Shown here in pieces: positions 3,159 to 9,501 of a stretch of DNA of 12,231 nt. A model generated the notes under the pieces. That model did no database searches. It worked only from the letters and a program-made list of their open reading frames with translations, and was not told the DNA's origin. How positions within the stretch are numbered: the first letter of the stretch is position 1; each line of letters begins with the position of its first letter. The position numbers and the translations under genes are program-made. This DNA comes from a virus (taxonomy: Duplodnaviria > Heunggongvirae > Uroviricota > Caudoviricetes): IMG/VR virus record IMGVR_UViG_2645727901_000013, one strand, 5' to 3'.

Positions 3159-3416
3159 TCACGCAGTAAACTCCTTCACCAGTATTTCAAACTGGCTTAC
3201 CTGGCCTTCCAGTTCCGCCACGCAATCCACCAGCTCATCCACCGCCTTTTGTGTGCGGTGTTTTGCCAGCAGCAGATCACGCAGCGCCGGAGTAAGCTGC
3301 TTGCGGAGCGTATCCTTTGCCACGCTCGTTTTTTCCATCTGTTCAGCACAACGAAGCATCTCCTGCGCCTGCCGACGAAGTTGTTCCGGTGAAACAGTGA
3401 TTGCTCTGTTGTTCAA
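3159..3416 (-). CDS. Hypothetical protein (85 aa), charged and probably helical
   Basis: Track ORF; start ATG overlaps the stop of the upstream helicase gene (coordinates 3413-3416), consistent with translational coupling in the operon. No recognisable motif. Confidence 0.55.
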   Translation of the reverse strand: MNNRAITVSPEQLRRQAQEMLRCAEQMEKTSVAKDTLRKQLTPALRDLLLAKHRTQKAVDELVDCVAELEGQVSQFEILVKEFTA

Positions 3417-4813
3417 AATAAACGCTCCGTTTTACTGCCCGACATGCGGTTATTGCTGTATCTGCGCGGATTGCCCGGCGTCATGGGTGTGGAAAGAACC
3501 CGGGCACTCTCCTGGTCCACAGGCAGAAAATGTCCGTTATGAAAACGCCGGTAAATGGTCCCGAGCGTGCCATTACGCTGTTTCGTGATGTTGATTTCTG
3601 CTATGCCTCTGGCCTGAGTTTCCGGGTTGTATACCTCATCCCTGTAAAGCATCAGAATGATGTCGGCATCCGCCTCGATTTCCCCGGAGTTTTTCAGGTC
3701 CGAGTTCATTGGGCGTTTATTGGGTCTGGATTCCACGCCGCGGGAGAGCTGGCTCAGAGCAATCAGCGGAAAACCGCCGGATTTTGCCAGGCTTTTAAGT
3801 CCCTTTGAGATTTCCCCCACAGCAAGGTCGTGACGCCCCGTGCTGCGGGTTTTAATCAGGCCGAGGTAATCGACCACAACCAGCGCCGTTTCCGGGTGTT
3901 TCATCCGGTGGTGCTTCGTGGTTGCACATATCTCATCAATGGTCAGGTTTGCCTGGTCCACCATCCAGATATTACGCCCCGTCATTCGTCCCACGCCCTG
4001 CGAGAAACGCGCCCAGTCTTCATCTTCAAAACGGGCAACAGACTTAAGACGGGATACCGGCATTCCACCGGCAGCAGACACCATACGTTCACCAATCTGG
4101 ATGTTCGCCATCTCCATGGTGAACAGAAGCACGCCATGCCCCTGCTCAGTCACCTTGTCGATGATGTCCAGCGCAAGTTCGGTTTTCCCCATCGAAGGAC
4201 GGGCGGCAATGAATACCAGGTCTCCGGGCTCCATACCGCCCGTTTTTGCGTCCAGTTCATCAATACCGGTCATCAGCGCCCTGGATTTCTCCAGTCCCTG
4301 ATTGCGGCATTCAACACGGTCGACCACTTCCGGAAGGACATCATCAATGTGAACCGGCTGAATGACGCCCTTTCCGGTCGACAGTGAGGCCATCATGTTC
4401 TGCGCATCCTTCAGGGCATCCTCGGCTGCTTCACAGGTATACGCATCACGTAAATTCTGTAATGCTTCAGTCAGTGTTTTTTCTGCATCGCGCAGTGCGG
4501 CATTGCGCCGCAACGCTGCGACATAGTGCTCCAGTGAAGACTTCACCCAGGTTTTGCGTCCGGTGTCGGTAATCACCGGGGCAAGTTCCGGCATCTCATT
4601 GCACAGCAGTACGGGGTCAATGACGCCGGATATGCGAGCCTGTCTGCAAATCCCCGCGTAAATATCCCGGTACTGACGCACAAAAAATACATCCGCCGGA
4701 AGTGTGGCCAGAATATCCATCACTTCCGGATCGGCCCCACGCAGAAAAAACGCACCGATGACAGCGCCTTCCAGGTCATCGTTACGCCATGCCGGGGTGT
4801 TCTGGCTGGTCAT
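3413..4813 (-). CDS. Replicative DNA helicase, DnaB-like (phage-encoded)
   Basis: 466-aa ORF with Walker A IAARPSMGKTELALD, Walker-B-like LVVVDYLGL and DnaB-family arrangement (N-terminal domain plus RecA-like C-terminal domain). Start overlaps the stop of the DnaC-like gene (4810-4813). Confidence 0.9.
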   Translation of the reverse strand: MTSQNTPAWRNDDLEGAVIGAFFLRGADPEVMDILATLPADVFFVRQYRDIYAGICRQARISGVIDPVLLCNEMPELAPVITDTGRKTWVKSSLEHYVAALRRNAALRDAEKTLTEALQNLRDAYTCEAAEDALKDAQNMMASLSTGKGVIQPVHIDDVLPEVVDRVECRNQGLEKSRALMTGIDELDAKTGGMEPGDLVFIAARPSMGKTELALDIIDKVTEQGHGVLLFTMEMANIQIGERMVSAAGGMPVSRLKSVARFEDEDWARFSQGVGRMTGRNIWMVDQANLTIDEICATTKHHRMKHPETALVVVDYLGLIKTRSTGRHDLAVGEISKGLKSLAKSGGFPLIALSQLSRGVESRPNKRPMNSDLKNSGEIEADADIILMLYRDEVYNPETQARGIAEINITKQRNGTLGTIYRRFHNGHFLPVDQESARVLSTPMTPGNPRRYSNNRMSGSKTERLF

Positions 4814-5718
4814 GCGGCAACACCTCCGATACGAGAACGGTAGCTGGGCCAGTTAAACGACAACCAGTTGCGCCCGCCATCGGTGATCCTGTCGGCAATC
4901 CGGGGACTGATGAACGCCCACAATTCTTCCGGTGAAAGGTTGCTGATCAGGATAGTTGGCAAAATACCCTCATACCGGGCATTGATAATTTCCTGCAAAA
5001 TGGCCATTTCAGCCGCACTGCCAAACTGAACGCCGACTTCGTCGACAATCAGCAAATCCAGTGACGCATAATGCTCAATGACGTCATCCGCTGTTTTTTC
5101 ACTGTCATTCCGCCAGCAGTTTTTCACAGCCCGGGTAAGGCGCATCACGTCGGTGATCTCCACACTGGCCAGATAGTTACGGATGATGTGTTTTGCCATT
5201 GATACCGCCAGATGATTTTTCCCGGTACCGCAACTGCCGGTCATAACAAGACTGGTACCGTTCTCCAGCATATCTGGCCAGTTCTCCGCATAGCGGCGAC
5301 AGGCCGCAAGATTTCTGGCTGCGTCAGGATTAACCTCCAGATAATTATCAAACTCGCAGTCCCGAAAACGCAGAGCAATTCCGGCGTTATCAGTCAGTTC
5401 TTCCGCCTTGAGGGACGACAGTTCCATGGTCAAATCACTGGCCTCAGCGATCAAGCAGTCAGGGCAGCATGAAATTTTTTCTCTGTCCTCGCCATTACGA
5501 TCGATCCACACCAGTATATGCGTACGATATTTACCGTGTTTTTCGCAATATCCGCGACCTTCACGCATCAGGCAGGAACGATAAGGCCATGGCTTTTCGC
5601 CCTTCTGAGCAAATGCAATCTCTGCCCGTAACTCATCCATTTCTGCCCGTAACTCATCCATTCGCGCCTGTAGTCTTGTTTGTTTCTCACGTTGGTCAAT
5701 CGTCATCATCGCTGTCAC
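4810..5718 (-). CDS. DnaC/IstB-like AAA+ helicase loader with N-terminal Cys-rich (zinc-ribbon-like) extension
   Basis: 302-aa ORF; Walker A MTGSCGTGKNHLA and Walker B LLIVDEVG typical of DnaC/IstB ATPases. N-terminal region has C..C....CC..C cysteines and an in-frame tandem MDELRAE repeat. Confidence 0.85.
   Translation of the reverse strand: MTAMMTIDQREKQTRLQARMDELRAEMDELRAEIAFAQKGEKPWPYRSCLMREGRGYCEKHGKYRTHILVWIDRNGEDREKISCCPDCLIAEASDLTMELSSLKAEELTDNAGIALRFRDCEFDNYLEVNPDAARNLAACRRYAENWPDMLENGTSLVMTGSCGTGKNHLAVSMAKHIIRNYLASVEITDVMRLTRAVKNCWRNDSEKTADDVIEHYASLDLLIVDEVGVQFGSAAEMAILQEIINARYEGILPTILISNLSPEELWAFISPRIADRITDGGRNWLSFNWPSYRSRIGGVAA
5621..5662. repeat. Perfect 21-bp tandem duplication (2 copies) inside the DnaC-like gene
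   Basis: Seen in sequence: TCTGCCCGTAACTCATCCATT at 5621-5641 and again at 5642-5662. In-frame, giving MDELRAE-MDELRAE in the encoded protein. Confidence 0.9.
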
Positions 5719-5719
5719 C

Positions 5720-6712
5720 TCAGAATGTCAATTTGTTACTGGATTTACCGAATTTGTCAGACATGGCTCCCAGGCCAGCCAGGACATCGACCTGTCGCTG
5801 TCGCCCACCTCCGTGAGCGGCTGGCTGTTGCCAGTAATCTTCGAAGTGACGATCGGGTCCAAAGAACGTCGCAGCCTGCTTCACGAACTGTGTGCCGATA
5901 TTTCCTGTAGCACGTACCCAGGCGGCATACCGCTTCACGCCATCAAGCATGGTCTCCGGTTTTATTCCCTCCCTGATACGGGCTTTCCAGGCTTTGAAGG
6001 CTGCTGACTTGGAATTGCCACCAGCACGTTTGGGATATTCCTGCCAGGCCTGTTCAAATTCCGGTGAATATTCCTGTCGGGCAGAACGCGCTGGCGCAGA
6101 CGCGTCAGCGGATGCATCAATAGTGTTTTTAGTCTCCGTTGTAATCTCTGTAGTAATCTCTGTATTTGTATCAACATTCGGCGTATCCCCTGTTCCGTTA
6201 TGACGTCGGGGGGTGTTCCGTTTTAACGTAATAGCTGTATCGCTGATTGCATTATTGCTGTTACTTTCTGGCGAAACAGAAGAAGGTGTGGTGATGGCCG
6301 CAATTGCCTGTGGGTTGATCCCGACAAACAAAATATTGCTGCATTTCACCCCATCGAGCATTTCCACCGTGCGTAAATCCAGAGTAATAAACCCTGCATC
6401 GCGCAGACGCTTCAGCGCATCTGCGGTTTCCCTTTTCCCGAAACCAAACTGCTCAGCAAACGCCTGGTAGCTTCTTTGCAGTTTGTCGCCCTGAAAACGC
6501 TTGCGATATCCCAGCAACGCTCCGGTGTGCTCATCCCTGACCTCTGTCGGGCGGTACCAGTAAACGATCTCTGAAAGCAGAGCGATAGCCGTCGCATCCG
6601 GACGCCCACTGGGTAGTCGAATATATTTCCACCAGTTCGCAGGTGTAACATTGCCGGAAATATTAATTTGACCAATAGCCATAACTTCCGGTGTGGGGGC
6701 GTAACGGCTCAT
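5720..6712 (-). CDS. Phage replication initiation / replisome organizer protein (O-like; N-terminal organizer domain plus conserved phage C-terminal domain)
   Basis: 330-aa ORF in the lambda O position, immediately upstream of the helicase-loader and helicase genes. Low-complexity central linker (…NTEITTEITTETKNTIDASADASA…). C-terminal segment EYSPEFEQAWQEYPKRAGG…AAFKAWKARI fits the conserved phage replication-protein C-terminus as I recall it. Domain names from memory. Confidence 0.75.
   Translation of the reverse strand: MSRYAPTPEVMAIGQINISGNVTPANWWKYIRLPSGRPDATAIALLSEIVYWYRPTEVRDEHTGALLGYRKRFQGDKLQRSYQAFAEQFGFGKRETADALKRLRDAGFITLDLRTVEMLDGVKCSNILFVGINPQAIAAITTPSSVSPESNSNNAISDTAITLKRNTPRRHNGTGDTPNVDTNTEITTEITTETKNTIDASADASAPARSARQEYSPEFEQAWQEYPKRAGGNSKSAAFKAWKARIREGIKPETMLDGVKRYAAWVRATGNIGTQFVKQAATFFGPDRHFEDYWQQPAAHGGGRQRQVDVLAGLGAMSDKFGKSSNKLTF
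6141..6164. repeat. Iteron-like direct repeat (2 x 12 bp GTAATCTCTGTA) in the linker of the O-like gene; candidate origin element
   Basis: Seen in sequence: GTAATCTCTGTA at 6141-6152 and 6153-6164, followed by TTTGTATC. Lambda-type origins lie inside the initiator gene as iterons (established knowledge); the assignment here is inference. Confidence 0.4.
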
Positions 6713-7008
6713 ACAACCTCCTTCCGCGGCATGAGAATTGTGTAGCCACGCGCAGGTTGTAGTCTGGCTTTTGCATCAATAGTAAGCGTTGCAATTTTTC
6801 GGATATGAAGATAACCAGCTCTTTCCAGTGCCAGGGTTTCCCTGAATATCGCTTGCTTAGAACAACAGCAGAAATCAGCAAGCACCCGATGATCAATAAC
6901 TCTCTCGCCTTCACCGTCTGAAGAACCCGACATCAAAACACGCAACATAATCAGGCGCTGAATCGGGTTATCGAAAGCACATCCGCACACAAACTGAAAA
7001 CAGTTCAC
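6709..7008 (-). CDS. Hypothetical protein (99 aa), possible winged-helix DNA-binding protein
   Basis: Track ORF; ATGA-type start/stop overlaps with both neighbours (7005-7008 and 6709-6712) place it in the coupled operon. Segment KQAIFRETLALERAGYLHIRK looks like a recognition helix/wing; weak. Confidence 0.5.
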   Translation of the reverse strand: MNCFQFVCGCAFDNPIQRLIMLRVLMSGSSDGEGERVIDHRVLADFCCCSKQAIFRETLALERAGYLHIRKIATLTIDAKARLQPARGYTILMPRKEVV

Positions 7009-7229: not shown

Positions 7230-7420
7230 GGACGCACCTCCGCCGTAGTTACGTATTTAACCGGGCTACCTTTCATTGAGATGGTTTCACACATCTCTGC
7301 CGCTTTCAGTTCCGCTGTTTTTCTGGATTTATAGCGACGGTGCCAGACAGATACATCCGTGCGAACTGATACATCGTTTCTGTATTCCGTAGTGGAGATG
7401 ATGATTTCGTAACTAATCAT
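7226..7420 (-). CDS. Hypothetical protein (64 aa)
   Basis: Track ORF; start overlaps the stop of the Rha-like gene (7417-7420). No recognisable motif. Confidence 0.45.
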   Translation of the reverse strand: MISYEIIISTTEYRNDVSVRTDVSVWHRRYKSRKTAELKAAEMCETISMKGSPVKYVTTAEVRP

Positions 7421-8265: not shown

Positions 8266-8348
8266 ATAGCTGCTGATATCTTTAGAACTGTTCTTGGATG
8301 TTTCGGAGCCGTTTTATGCGAAACAGCTCCCCGTTATTGATGTTGAGT

Positions 8349-8374
8349 GAGCCGGGTTACTCCCGGCTTTTTTT
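8349..8374 (+). terminator. Intrinsic terminator oriented for the plus strand (antisense to the early operon); oop-like
   Basis: Seen in sequence: stem GCCGGG (8351-8356), loop TTACT, CCCGGC (8362-8367), then 7 T (8368-8374) on the plus strand. On the minus strand the hairpin is not followed by a U-tract. Lies between the two minus-strand Rha-like genes, the position of the lambda oop terminator. Confidence 0.6.
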
Positions 8375-9081
8375 CATCGCTGCCAACCAATAACCTGAAA
8401 TAACCCCATTTTCGGGTGATACCAGCGAGTCCCTCGCGGTTCTGCTTCCTCCATAACCCGATAAAAAGCAGCCATAAACGGTTCCACAGCAACAATTGCG
8501 CGACGTGACAACAATCCGTCCGGCGTCATGAACTCATGTGTGTCTGTAGGAATTTGATAGGCGTTCACCAGATTGCGGCATTTATCATCTGACAAACCGG
8601 TTTTTGCTTTCAGTTGGCGATATCCGGCATAGCCCTCACGAATAGTGCCCTTTTTAATTTGCTCGACTGTTTCAGCAACGTGGCTGACTTTTTCTTCCAC
8701 CTGAGTGATCCGTTTCTGTTGGCGAACGGCTTCAAGAGCCATCGCGGCAACCATTTCGATTTCGCTCATTGGCTTACGGATCTGTTCTTCCAGTTCGCGC
8801 CAGCGATCTACCAGGCGAGCTGTGAATTCAGGACAGAGCTGTGCGACGACAATGATGCTGTCGCGCTTACCTCGTTCACCTTCGAATACATACGCGCTAG
8901 AAAATCGGCGAGGCCCAAGTGATTGTTTATTCTCAATTTCCACAGTCTGTGGAAATTGGATGATTCCCTTTTTAGCCAGTGTTTCAATAGTTCTCTTAAC
9001 ACTATCTGGTCGGCTTCCCACCAGCTCTGCGATCTCAACGCTGGTCATGGATGCTTTGCCGTTAAAAATTGCGGTGTTCAT
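8374..9081 (-). CDS. Phage regulatory protein, divergent Rha-like (cII-position gene)
   Basis: 235-aa ORF whose start overlaps the cro-like stop (9078-9081). N-terminal TSVEIAELVGSRPDSVKRTIETL…YVFEGERGKRDSIIVVAQL follows the same residue pattern as the Rha domain in the next gene (SSLAVAEYF..HKNVIQKIQTL…ITRDGFAFLAMG). Assignment by pattern comparison only. Confidence 0.55.
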   Translation of the reverse strand: MNTAIFNGKASMTSVEIAELVGSRPDSVKRTIETLAKKGIIQFPQTVEIENKQSLGPRRFSSAYVFEGERGKRDSIIVVAQLCPEFTARLVDRWRELEEQIRKPMSEIEMVAAMALEAVRQQKRITQVEEKVSHVAETVEQIKKGTIREGYAGYRQLKAKTGLSDDKCRNLVNAYQIPTDTHEFMTPDGLLSRRAIVAVEPFMAAFYRVMEEAEPRGTRWYHPKMGLFQVIGWQR

Positions 9082-9368
9082 TGTTTATCTCCTGCGTGTA
9101 TTCCATCCGCTCTGTGTGGTGAACTTGGATTTAGGCTTTTGCGTAACAAGTTAGGAATTCCATCTTCAGGGTGAGGATAAAGATCTGGCCTTAAGCCATG
9201 AGGCGTAACCTTCCATGCAACTACTTCACATACTCGTAAAACGAAACGAGCAGGAATTGTGCTTTTTGAAAACCACTGATTCACCGCTTGCGGCGTCACA
9301 CCAAGATTTCGCGCTATGGCATTTTGCGCAATTAATGCACGAAGTTTGTCGTAATCATTTCCTTCCAT
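9078..9368 (-). CDS. Cro-like HTH regulator (Cro/YdaS-type), first gene of the early rightward operon
   Basis: Divergent from the CI-like gene across a 133-bp AT-rich region. Contains ARNLGVTPQAVNQWFS, a Cro/CI-type HTH signature comparable to lambda Cro LGVYQSAINKAI. No strong SD at the 9368 start, so the exact start is uncertain. Confidence 0.7.
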   Translation of the reverse strand: MEGNDYDKLRALIAQNAIARNLGVTPQAVNQWFSKSTIPARFVLRVCEVVAWKVTPHGLRPDLYPHPEDGIPNLLRKSLNPSSPHRADGIHAGDKQ

Positions 9369-9501
9369 AACAAAGCACCAATATTAACTTTATAAATCAA
9401 GAATACATCAAGTTTAAATTAACATGCAAGTTACAAAAGGATCGAATACACTAAAATCAAGTAAAGATTTATCCTTGTAAAGAAACCCACAGGATTTGGT
9501 C
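9369..9501. promoter_or_regulatory. Immunity switch region (OR-like) between divergent cro-like and cI-like genes, with repeated ATCAAG-containing motifs
   Basis: Seen in sequence: AAATCAAG at 9394-9401 and 9454-9461, ATCAAGTTTAAATT at 9407-9420, ATCAAGTAAAGATT at 9456-9469, GAATAC at 9401-9406 and 9443-9448. Individual promoters and operator boundaries could not be resolved by eye. Confidence 0.5.

Follow-up and report, generated by a model that had tools for sequence, protein, structure and literature searches.

The stretch of DNA analysed here (12,231 nucleotides, hereafter the window) is the Caudoviricetes record IMGVR_UViG_2645727901_000013 of IMG/VR, and its source matches a lambdoid prophage of E. 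coli O55:H7 RM12579. All replication genes of the window are carried on the minus strand. Among them, the open reading frame (ORF) list and its translation revealed a gene for a 330-amino-acid 'O-like' initiator of the replisome-organizer type (5720–6712), and this gene contains the whole of the probable replication origin described below. It is 100% identical to positions 2682703–2683695 of NC_017656.1, annotated there as 'hypothetical protein'. The full-length protein matched PHROG family phrog_270, 'replication initiation protein' (E=7e-78), and its C-terminal part matched phrog_1701, 'DnaD-like helicase loader' (E=1e-38), as well as 'primosomal protein' families. No sequence match was obtained in Pfam, NCBIfam, or PDB, so the name of the protein comes from the PHROG families only. 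The N-terminal domain (residues 1–140, coding region 6293–6712, minus strand) is presumed to be an iteron-binding winged-helix module. Its homologues (46–72% identity) align over residues 1–140 and diverge beyond, and a few of them have precomputed winged-helix Pfam matches (PF13412, PF13730). The C-terminal module (from approximately residue 197; 5723–6124, minus strand), delimited by the edges of megablast homology and by PHROG profiles spanning roughly residues 198–309, presumably recruits the loader and the helicase. Directly downstream of the initiator, on the same strand, lies a gene for a DnaC-like helicase loader (4810–5718; Pfam IstB_IS21 and Bac_DnaA ATPase; NCBIfam DnaC with E=4e-36, under the family cut-off), followed by a gene for a DnaB-like replicative helicase (3413–4813; Pfam DnaB_C with E=8e-74 and DnaB N-terminal domain; RefSeq annotation 'replicative DNA helicase').

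Within the initiator gene, GTAATCTCTGTA was present on the plus strand as a perfect tandem pair at 6141–6152 and 6153–6164, preceded at 6129–6140 by a degenerate unit, TTAGTCTCCGTT, with 8 of 12 matches. Tandem Repeats Finder reported the array at 6133–6164 (period 12, 2.7 copies, 90% matches, score 50). A first-pass annotation of this DNA, made from the letters alone, had noticed the pair and the partial third copy and had placed them in a low-complexity linker between the two domains of the protein; both observations were confirmed. On the gene strand, the tract (6128–6164, minus strand), delimited by direct reading, Tandem Repeats Finder, and comparison, consists of ACAGAGATTACT, ACAGAGATTACA, and ACGGAGACTAAA, which code TEIT TEIT TETK (residues 184–195) in a T/S/N/E/P-rich stretch between the N-terminal domain and the C-terminal module. 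It is proposed here as an unwinding or helicase-loading element. Perfect two-copy tandems at periods 9–24 were observed twice in the window, where 300 first-order Markov simulations gave a mean of 0.05, and a chance origin of the 12-bp tandem was therefore discounted. Sequences similar to ACAGAGATTAC (up to 2 mismatches) occurred 13 times in the window on both strands, compared with 2.2 expected and a maximum of 8 in 200 dinucleotide shuffles. The 11 copies outside the tract were scattered on both strands (e.g., 2540, 5615, 6228, and 7789). This excess may be a codon-usage effect or may be real.

The tract is contained in an AT-rich segment of low stability (6115–6180), defined by GC content and nearest-neighbour energy. 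In 40-bp windows across 6120–6179 the GC content was 30–32.5%, compared to about 50% around. Ranked by nearest-neighbour energy from the least stable upward, 6120–6169 came ninth among the non-overlapping 50-bp windows of the 12.2 kb, and the eight less stable ones were all located outside the initiator, loader, and helicase genes. In 80 related IMG/VR loci with the window-type N-domain, the number of units was one (one locus), two (66 loci), three (10 loci), or four (one locus). No substitutions were found within the 12-mer units among the related alleles (44 distinct alleles), so the array length apparently shifts by slippage while the unit sequence stays held. In the same allele family, segment 6137–6232 had 4 variable sites in 96 nt vs. 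74 in 480 nt of the N-domain.

A second pair of repeats, not seen in the first-pass annotation, was revealed by repeat search: TGTTCCGTTATGACGT at 6191–6206 and TGTTCCGTTTTAACGT at 6214–6229, with a spacing of 23 bp. Together with the tract, these 16-mers occupy residues 162–195, between the two modules. On the minus strand, iteron candidate 1 (ACGTTAAAACGGAACA, 6214–6229) had a perfect dyad core CGTT-AA-AACG and was invariant in the 44 alleles, and iteron candidate 2 (ACGTCATAACGGAACA, 6191–6206) showed one A-to-G variant among them; the common core is the dyad CGTT-NN-AACG. A possible degenerate third iteron (ACGCCGAATGTTGATA, 6169–6184, minus strand), 22 bp further on, is weak. It was recognized by eye from its alignment with the last iteron copy of the relatives L166 and L287 (14 of 22 positions match the L287 copy) and was not recovered in a 3-mismatch search for the 16-mer. 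Since the two 16-mers are read in different frames (TLKRNT in candidate 1, RRHNGT in candidate 2), they are repeats of the DNA and not of the peptide.

The consensus TACGTTGAAACGGAAC recurred three to four times at 22–24 bp, in all three frames, in the N-domain relatives L166, L215, L283, and L287, and a fifth relative examined, L168, had a single weak copy. More distant members of the N-domain family carried other repeats instead, namely five dyad-symmetric copies of TGTCCAGRGGTATGGACA in L169 (47% identity) and three copies of CCTACAGGG in L170 (51% identity). Repeats associated with other N-domain types differed as well; thus, the repeat sequence co-varies with the N-domain. As judged from these comparisons, the 16-mers at 6191–6229 are more likely to be the initiator binding sites than the 12-mers.

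The same layout is known from the origins of lambda, phi80 (gene 15), and P22 (gene 18). These are part of the initiator gene, where the coding regions of the N- and C-domains join, and consist of dyad-symmetric direct repeats approximately two helical turns apart, an AT-rich stretch of approximately 40 bp adjoining the repeats on the C-terminal side, and the C-terminal module. The lambda origin is formed by four 18-bp iterons joined to a 38-bp AT-rich sequence (PMC3349717), and two iterons with the AT-rich region suffice for unwinding in vitro (PMC7466680). Four iterons are annotated in the lambda record at 39034–39118. In phi80, four annotated gp15 sites are followed by an AT-rich run, and in P22 the annotated rep_origin inside gene 18 comprises three GGTAAAAC-type repeats, then an AT-rich run, and then TPLPPKGG. 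Unlike these phages, with four (lambda, phi80) or three (P22) iterons, the window has only two strong 16-mers and the weak third, and their sequence is different.

Similarity also extends to the AT-rich part. Window ACTAAAAACACTATT (6119–6133) resembles lambda ACAAAAGACACTATT, which directly follows lambda iteron 4. One related unit coding S-E-N-S was found at the right edge of the AT-rich region both in lambda (TCAGAGAATTCT, 39163–39174; L171) and in phi80 (TCCGAGAATTCT, locus about 8786–8797; L326). The lambda unit contains the EcoRI site at 39168, and L169 has two copies of TCAGAGAATTCT. In L189-type O proteins, TENTTEITSESTTE stands directly before lambda-like SSQNSGESSDQP, and in P0007, an N-domain relative of the window protein, TYTETTTEITTEIKNK stands directly before P22-like TPLPPTGG. 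Because of these hybrids, the tract can be regarded as positionally equivalent to the AT-rich region of lambda and P22. Differences are also evident: no similarity of the N-domain to lambda O or P22 gp18 was detectable in the sequence, and there was no Pfam Phage_rep_O match; instead of an A-rich run, the AT-rich part has tandem copies of a conserved 12-mer; and the place of lambda P is taken by DnaC-like and DnaB-like proteins.

In the phages TP901-1 and Tuc2009, it has been experimentally established that the initiators bind repeats inside their own genes and that these repeats are the origin (PMC8965321). In-gene direct repeats, as here, are characteristic of replisome-organizer origins (TP901-1 ORF13, Tuc2009 Rep2009, r1t ORF11), and such phages likewise have a DnaD-like C-terminal module, often followed by a DnaC-like loader (PMC8965321). 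The repeats of TP901-1 are followed by an AT-rich T/N/K/E-coding stretch, as in the window, but without ACAGAG units, and the hosts and sequences differ. Many other organizers of Firmicute phages (Staphylococcus phage 37, Bacillus DnaD-like proteins) do carry the 12-mer unit. In oriC and RK2-type iteron plasmids, short AT-rich repeats (13-mers) are located beside the initiator sites, where the duplex opens, and in iteron plasmids the Rep protein binds one strand of the AT-rich repeats sequence-specifically. Repeated AT-rich units of low duplex stability beside candidate initiator sites are found in the window, too. In contrast to the 13-mers, the unit here is 12 bp long (ACAGAGAnTACn), lies inside a coding region, and is dual-coding, and its opening is presumed.

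Taken together, these data indicate that the 12-bp repeats probably represent one half of a lambda-type origin in the prophage initiator gene, the half that is AT-rich and easily melted. An origin of this type at the interdomain linker had been suggested in the first-pass annotation, and the comparison supports it, with repeats, AT-rich segment, and C-module following each other in the gene direction. That annotation was half right: the origin was placed correctly, and its parts were mislabelled. According to the proposed mechanism, initiator dimers would bind the two strong 16-mers (6214–6229 and 6191–6206) and perhaps the degenerate third (6169–6184). The initiator–iteron complex would strain the adjacent 12-mer tract, located in the segment of approximately 30% GC, which would then open, and the C-terminal domain would deliver the DnaC-like loader and the DnaB-like helicase, encoded just downstream, to the opened DNA. 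One candidate for the partner of the tract is the initiator itself, by single-strand binding, an activity reported for lambda O and plasmid Rep proteins. For binding, melting, and helicase loading, the inference is drawn from the lambda model and from phages whose organizer proteins bind repeats within the genes that encode them (PMC7466680, PMC8965321). Systems of this kind are already known, and the new component is the conserved 12-mer unit.

Megablast matches to phages were confined to the C-terminal 403–444 nt of the initiator gene. Homology with phiP27 and PhiR49_2 ended at 6122–6124, the C-side edge of the AT-rich segment; these phages share the C-module only and have their own repeat arrays. 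Stx-converting phages share both the C-module and the tract, and the homology ended at 6163, inside the tract. They have a different N-domain, preceded by about five GGGAAAC repeats, and their tract reads ACAGAGAATACA ACAGAGATTACT TCAGAGAATACT ACAGAGAGTAAA. In mEp460, the tract units follow five GTCAAAATG repeats, and ORF012 of Staphylococcus phage 37 contains two copies of ACAGAGATTACT and then ACAGAGACTACT. The N-domains of these tract-bearing initiator types (window, Stx phages, mEp460, and Staphylococcus phage 37) were at most 31% identical to each other. The unit ACAGAGAnTACn was also found behind unrelated repeat arrays in initiators of Acinetobacter and Bacillus phages. As the same unit stands behind different arrays in initiators with such divergent N-domains, the 12-mer is not a cognate specificity site. 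Since the mosaic breakpoints coincide with parts of the origin, the origin appears to double as a joint between exchangeable N- and C-modules. In some relatives, the last approximately 40 C-terminal residues are also swapped, with endings FRG or NFNW instead of KLTF.

The pattern ACAGAGANTACNACAGAG was found in at least 120 IMG/VR loci; among the loci listed, nearly all matches were in frame, in the middle of ORFs of 250–400 amino acids. Array statistics were calculated for 55 non-redundant initiator-like ORFs, with at least three copies of a 9-mer within 150 nt as the criterion. Such arrays were present directly upstream of the tract in 48 of the 55; the corresponding figures were 4 for the downstream side and 5 for positions far upstream (Wilcoxon p about 2e-9), and the mean GC content of the tract was 0.36 vs. 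0.45–0.48 in the flanks. A scan of one genome per species gave 120 matches, 86 of them in in-frame ORFs of at least 200 amino acids, and 51 of these 86 had upstream repeats; some of the matches in short ORFs are probably due to chance. The hosts belonged to Pseudomonadota, Bacillota, Chloroflexota, Cyanobacteriota, Desulfobacterota, Fibrobacterota, and Gracilibacteria. A literature search for the unit, as DNA or peptide strings, returned spurious matches only, and no description of such an element was found in the papers searched. Readings of the unit as a DnaA box, IHF site, oriC 13-mer, DnaA-trio, or primase CTG were also considered; the fit was poor, and conservation in both Gram-positive and Gram-negative hosts would be left unexplained.

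The breakpoints, which fall precisely on the tract (6163) and on its C-side edge (6122–6124), and the fact that the tract joins many different N- and C-modules, would also fit an element that acts at the DNA level but not in unwinding, either as a recombination joint of the modules or as an RNA or translation signal, with the origin formed by the iterons only or located elsewhere. We consider this unlikely. The tract accompanies iteron arrays even in DNA without a gene that could be recombined or translated (see the cassettes described below), it occupies the place of the lambda and P22 AT-rich region, and within the three replication genes (initiator, loader, helicase) it is the 50-bp window with the lowest duplex stability found. 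No Rfam match, promoter, or terminator signal was detected at the tract: a search of 5600–6800 gave one sub-threshold Rfam match (5713–5851, clear of the repeats), and consensus sites were no commoner than in shuffled sequences. No other cluster with at least four repeat copies was present in the window. Another origin was sought there and not found, as no 150-bp window had more than three copies of a 9-mer. The 3-copy clusters corresponded to the operator region (about 9326–9400) and to weak chance-level sets, and the candidate at 8326–8500 proved to be a terminator hairpin with weak repeats.

It could also be supposed that the tract has no function at the DNA level and is a low-complexity linker made by slippage and kept because a hydrophilic T/E-rich linker works. 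Copy-number polymorphism, expected of a neutral coding minisatellite, is indeed seen (one to four units), the tract lies in a low-complexity linker and is nearly always read T-E-x-T, and T/E-rich stretches occur in many unrelated proteins. Free synonymous drift and a motif bound to one frame would be expected as well, but the codons were fixed, and the motif was found in another frame and in apparently non-coding cassettes. When the pattern allowed every codon for T-E-x-T-T-E-x-T, 120 stretches were obtained; 89 of them were loci that the exact-codon pattern had already given, and the 31 new ones came mostly from unrelated T/E-rich proteins using GAA. Codons were counted inside the tracts but outside the searched seed, with the rest of the same ORFs as the control. 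The GAG:GAA ratio was 32:5 in the tracts vs. 521:717 elsewhere (p=6e-8), and the ratio of ACA+ACT to ACC+ACG was 134:6 vs. 495:510 (p=2e-30). Because glutamate is coded by GAG in spite of the higher AT content of GAA, the unit is probably recognized for its sequence and not for mere AT-richness. Blastn revealed 40–45-nt matches with 83–93% identity in initiator genes of Acinetobacter, Staphylococcus, Bacillus, Klebsiella, Erwinia, Burkholderia, and Pseudomonas phages; such similarity between phages of E. coli, Staphylococcus, Bacillus, and Acinetobacter argues against a linker-only function.

In two homologues of the window N-domain from Lachnospiraceae and Ruminococcus genomes, L408 (2361–3410) and L364 (6155–6871, reverse strand), the first unit has 13 nt. 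The one extra base shifts the later ACAGAGAnTAC units to another frame (YRDYHRDY, YREYNRDS), and the ORFs stay intact past the shifted units, into a different C-terminal domain. The 8.4-kb rolling-circle plasmid pBamNAU-B3a of Bacillus velezensis (NC_022531.1; L327/L328), which has no N-domain homologue, carries at approximately 7290–7390 three CCTACAGGGAAA repeats with 22-bp spacing and then three ACAGAGATTACT units, in apparently non-coding DNA with no start codon in frame. This cassette lies approximately 530 bp upstream of an unannotated rolling-circle Rep gene and is also carried by near-identical plasmids; the core of its repeats matches that of L170. It may mimic a phage origin or serve as a second origin. 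Similar iteron and tract cassettes in apparently non-coding DNA were found in L443 and L389. The genes flanking the non-coding cassettes L443, L389, and L370 were uninformative. Overall, the homologues conserve the repeats as DNA, without the drift of ordinary coding sequence that the first-pass annotation had named as evidence against an origin, and a function as a linker only is quite improbable. From these comparisons, the stretch appears to be constrained both as DNA and as a linker peptide.

The label 'iteron-like' given to the 12-mers in the first-pass annotation, i.e., that they are specific double-strand sites of the N-terminal domain, is very improbable: they are perfect tandems where lambda-type phages keep iterons, have no substitutions in 44 alleles, and include a third unit, ACAACGGAGAC, that shares AACGGA with the 16-mer core, but the unit recurs behind the unrelated arrays described above, the Stx homology, with another N-domain, runs through the tract so that the tract belongs with the C-side, any number of copies between one and four is tolerated, and the units are contiguous at 12 bp and lack a dyad, in contrast to the dyad sites of lambda, phi80, and P22, spaced at 18–23 bp, and to the approximately 21–23 bp expected of iterons.

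Several points weigh against an easily melted, lambda-type origin half. Near-identical alleles have from one to four units, as in a slippage-prone linker, and the preference for GAG is without an explanation. In about 145 of 158 iteron-associated cases the tract is read T-E-x-T, which indicates a constraint at the protein level, too. Only two iterons are convincing here, compared with three to six in most relatives. Lambda, P22, phi80, and TP901-1 have at most one unit and function nevertheless, so that origins of this class do not in general depend on the repeat. The N-domain, without a match in the family and structure databases, is presumed to bind DNA from its distant relatives only, and the prophage may be replication-defective. 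For the element and its close relatives, the proposed function is based on comparison.

A near-palindrome was the other origin feature of the first-pass annotation, which had placed it at about 6083–6104 as a flanking GC-rich segment. It is present, six bases to the right, at 6089–6110 (CGCTGGCGCAGACGCGTCAGCG, read in the window), where it codes ADASAPA at the start of the C-terminal module. It has 8 pairs with one internal mismatch and a 4-nt loop. As a flanking feature of the origin it was poorly kept among close relatives: a G-to-A change breaking a stem pair was found in 59 related loci, and a 6-bp deletion removing the right arm was found in 12. The 6-bp-shorter allele is also present in E. 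coli genomes (987-bp matches). Since the commonest alternative allele breaks a pair and a frequent allele deletes the right arm, the palindrome was rejected as a conserved structure, and it is probably incidental. An apparent compensatory change in Stx1 phage L002 (GAC to GAT with GCG to GCA), which would speak for a conserved structure, was outweighed by the tally over all loci. A 20-nt direct repeat with 90% identity, GCGCAGACGCTTCAGCGCAT / GCGCAGACGCGTCAGCGGAT, connects 6401–6420 in the N-domain coding region with 6094–6113 in the palindrome region, 307 bp apart.

A wider generalization can be offered tentatively, with less confidence than the function proposed for the window itself. Tandem ACAGAGAnTACn units might be a distinct, sequence-specific origin element, not AT-rich filler, used by temperate phages and plasmids of at least Pseudomonadota, Bacillota, Chloroflexota, and Cyanobacteriota in their in-gene origins and in some stand-alone ones, in every case directly after lineage-specific iterons and read by a conserved partner. 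Such a partner would be a single-strand-binding surface common to the initiator superfamily or a universal replisome component. If the unit is indeed recognized sequence-specifically, it would be a conserved cis-element of replication initiation common to very different initiators, and its binding partner could be searched for directly. For the window, a probable origin is placed in a gene that RefSeq calls 'hypothetical protein', with candidate initiator sites separated from the unwinding segment. A simple sequence signature, namely a lineage-specific array of repeats and, after it, ACAGAGAnTACn units midway along an ORF of about 250–400 amino acids, marks candidate origins and their likely iterons in many prophage and phage initiator genes across bacterial phyla. 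The tract would also be a case of dual coding, as DNA and as protein linker, that coincides with the mosaic joint of exchangeable initiator modules.

The gene order of the window is a cI-like repressor gene (plus strand), a cro-like gene, two Rha-family genes, and then the initiator, loader, and helicase genes. An ORF of 99 amino acids (6709–7008, minus strand) overlaps the start codon of the initiator gene (ATGA) and matched positions 3–93 of the 223-position PHROG 4617, 'replication initiation protein' (E=1e-28). Immediately upstream of the initiator there is thus what looks like a second initiator-like gene, truncated or split. The DnaC-like gene contains, close to its 5' end, a perfect 21-bp tandem duplication, TCTGCCCGTAACTCATCCATT x2, at 5621–5662 (Tandem Repeats Finder score 84). 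It codes MDELRAE twice and is the only other perfect 9–24 bp tandem in the window.

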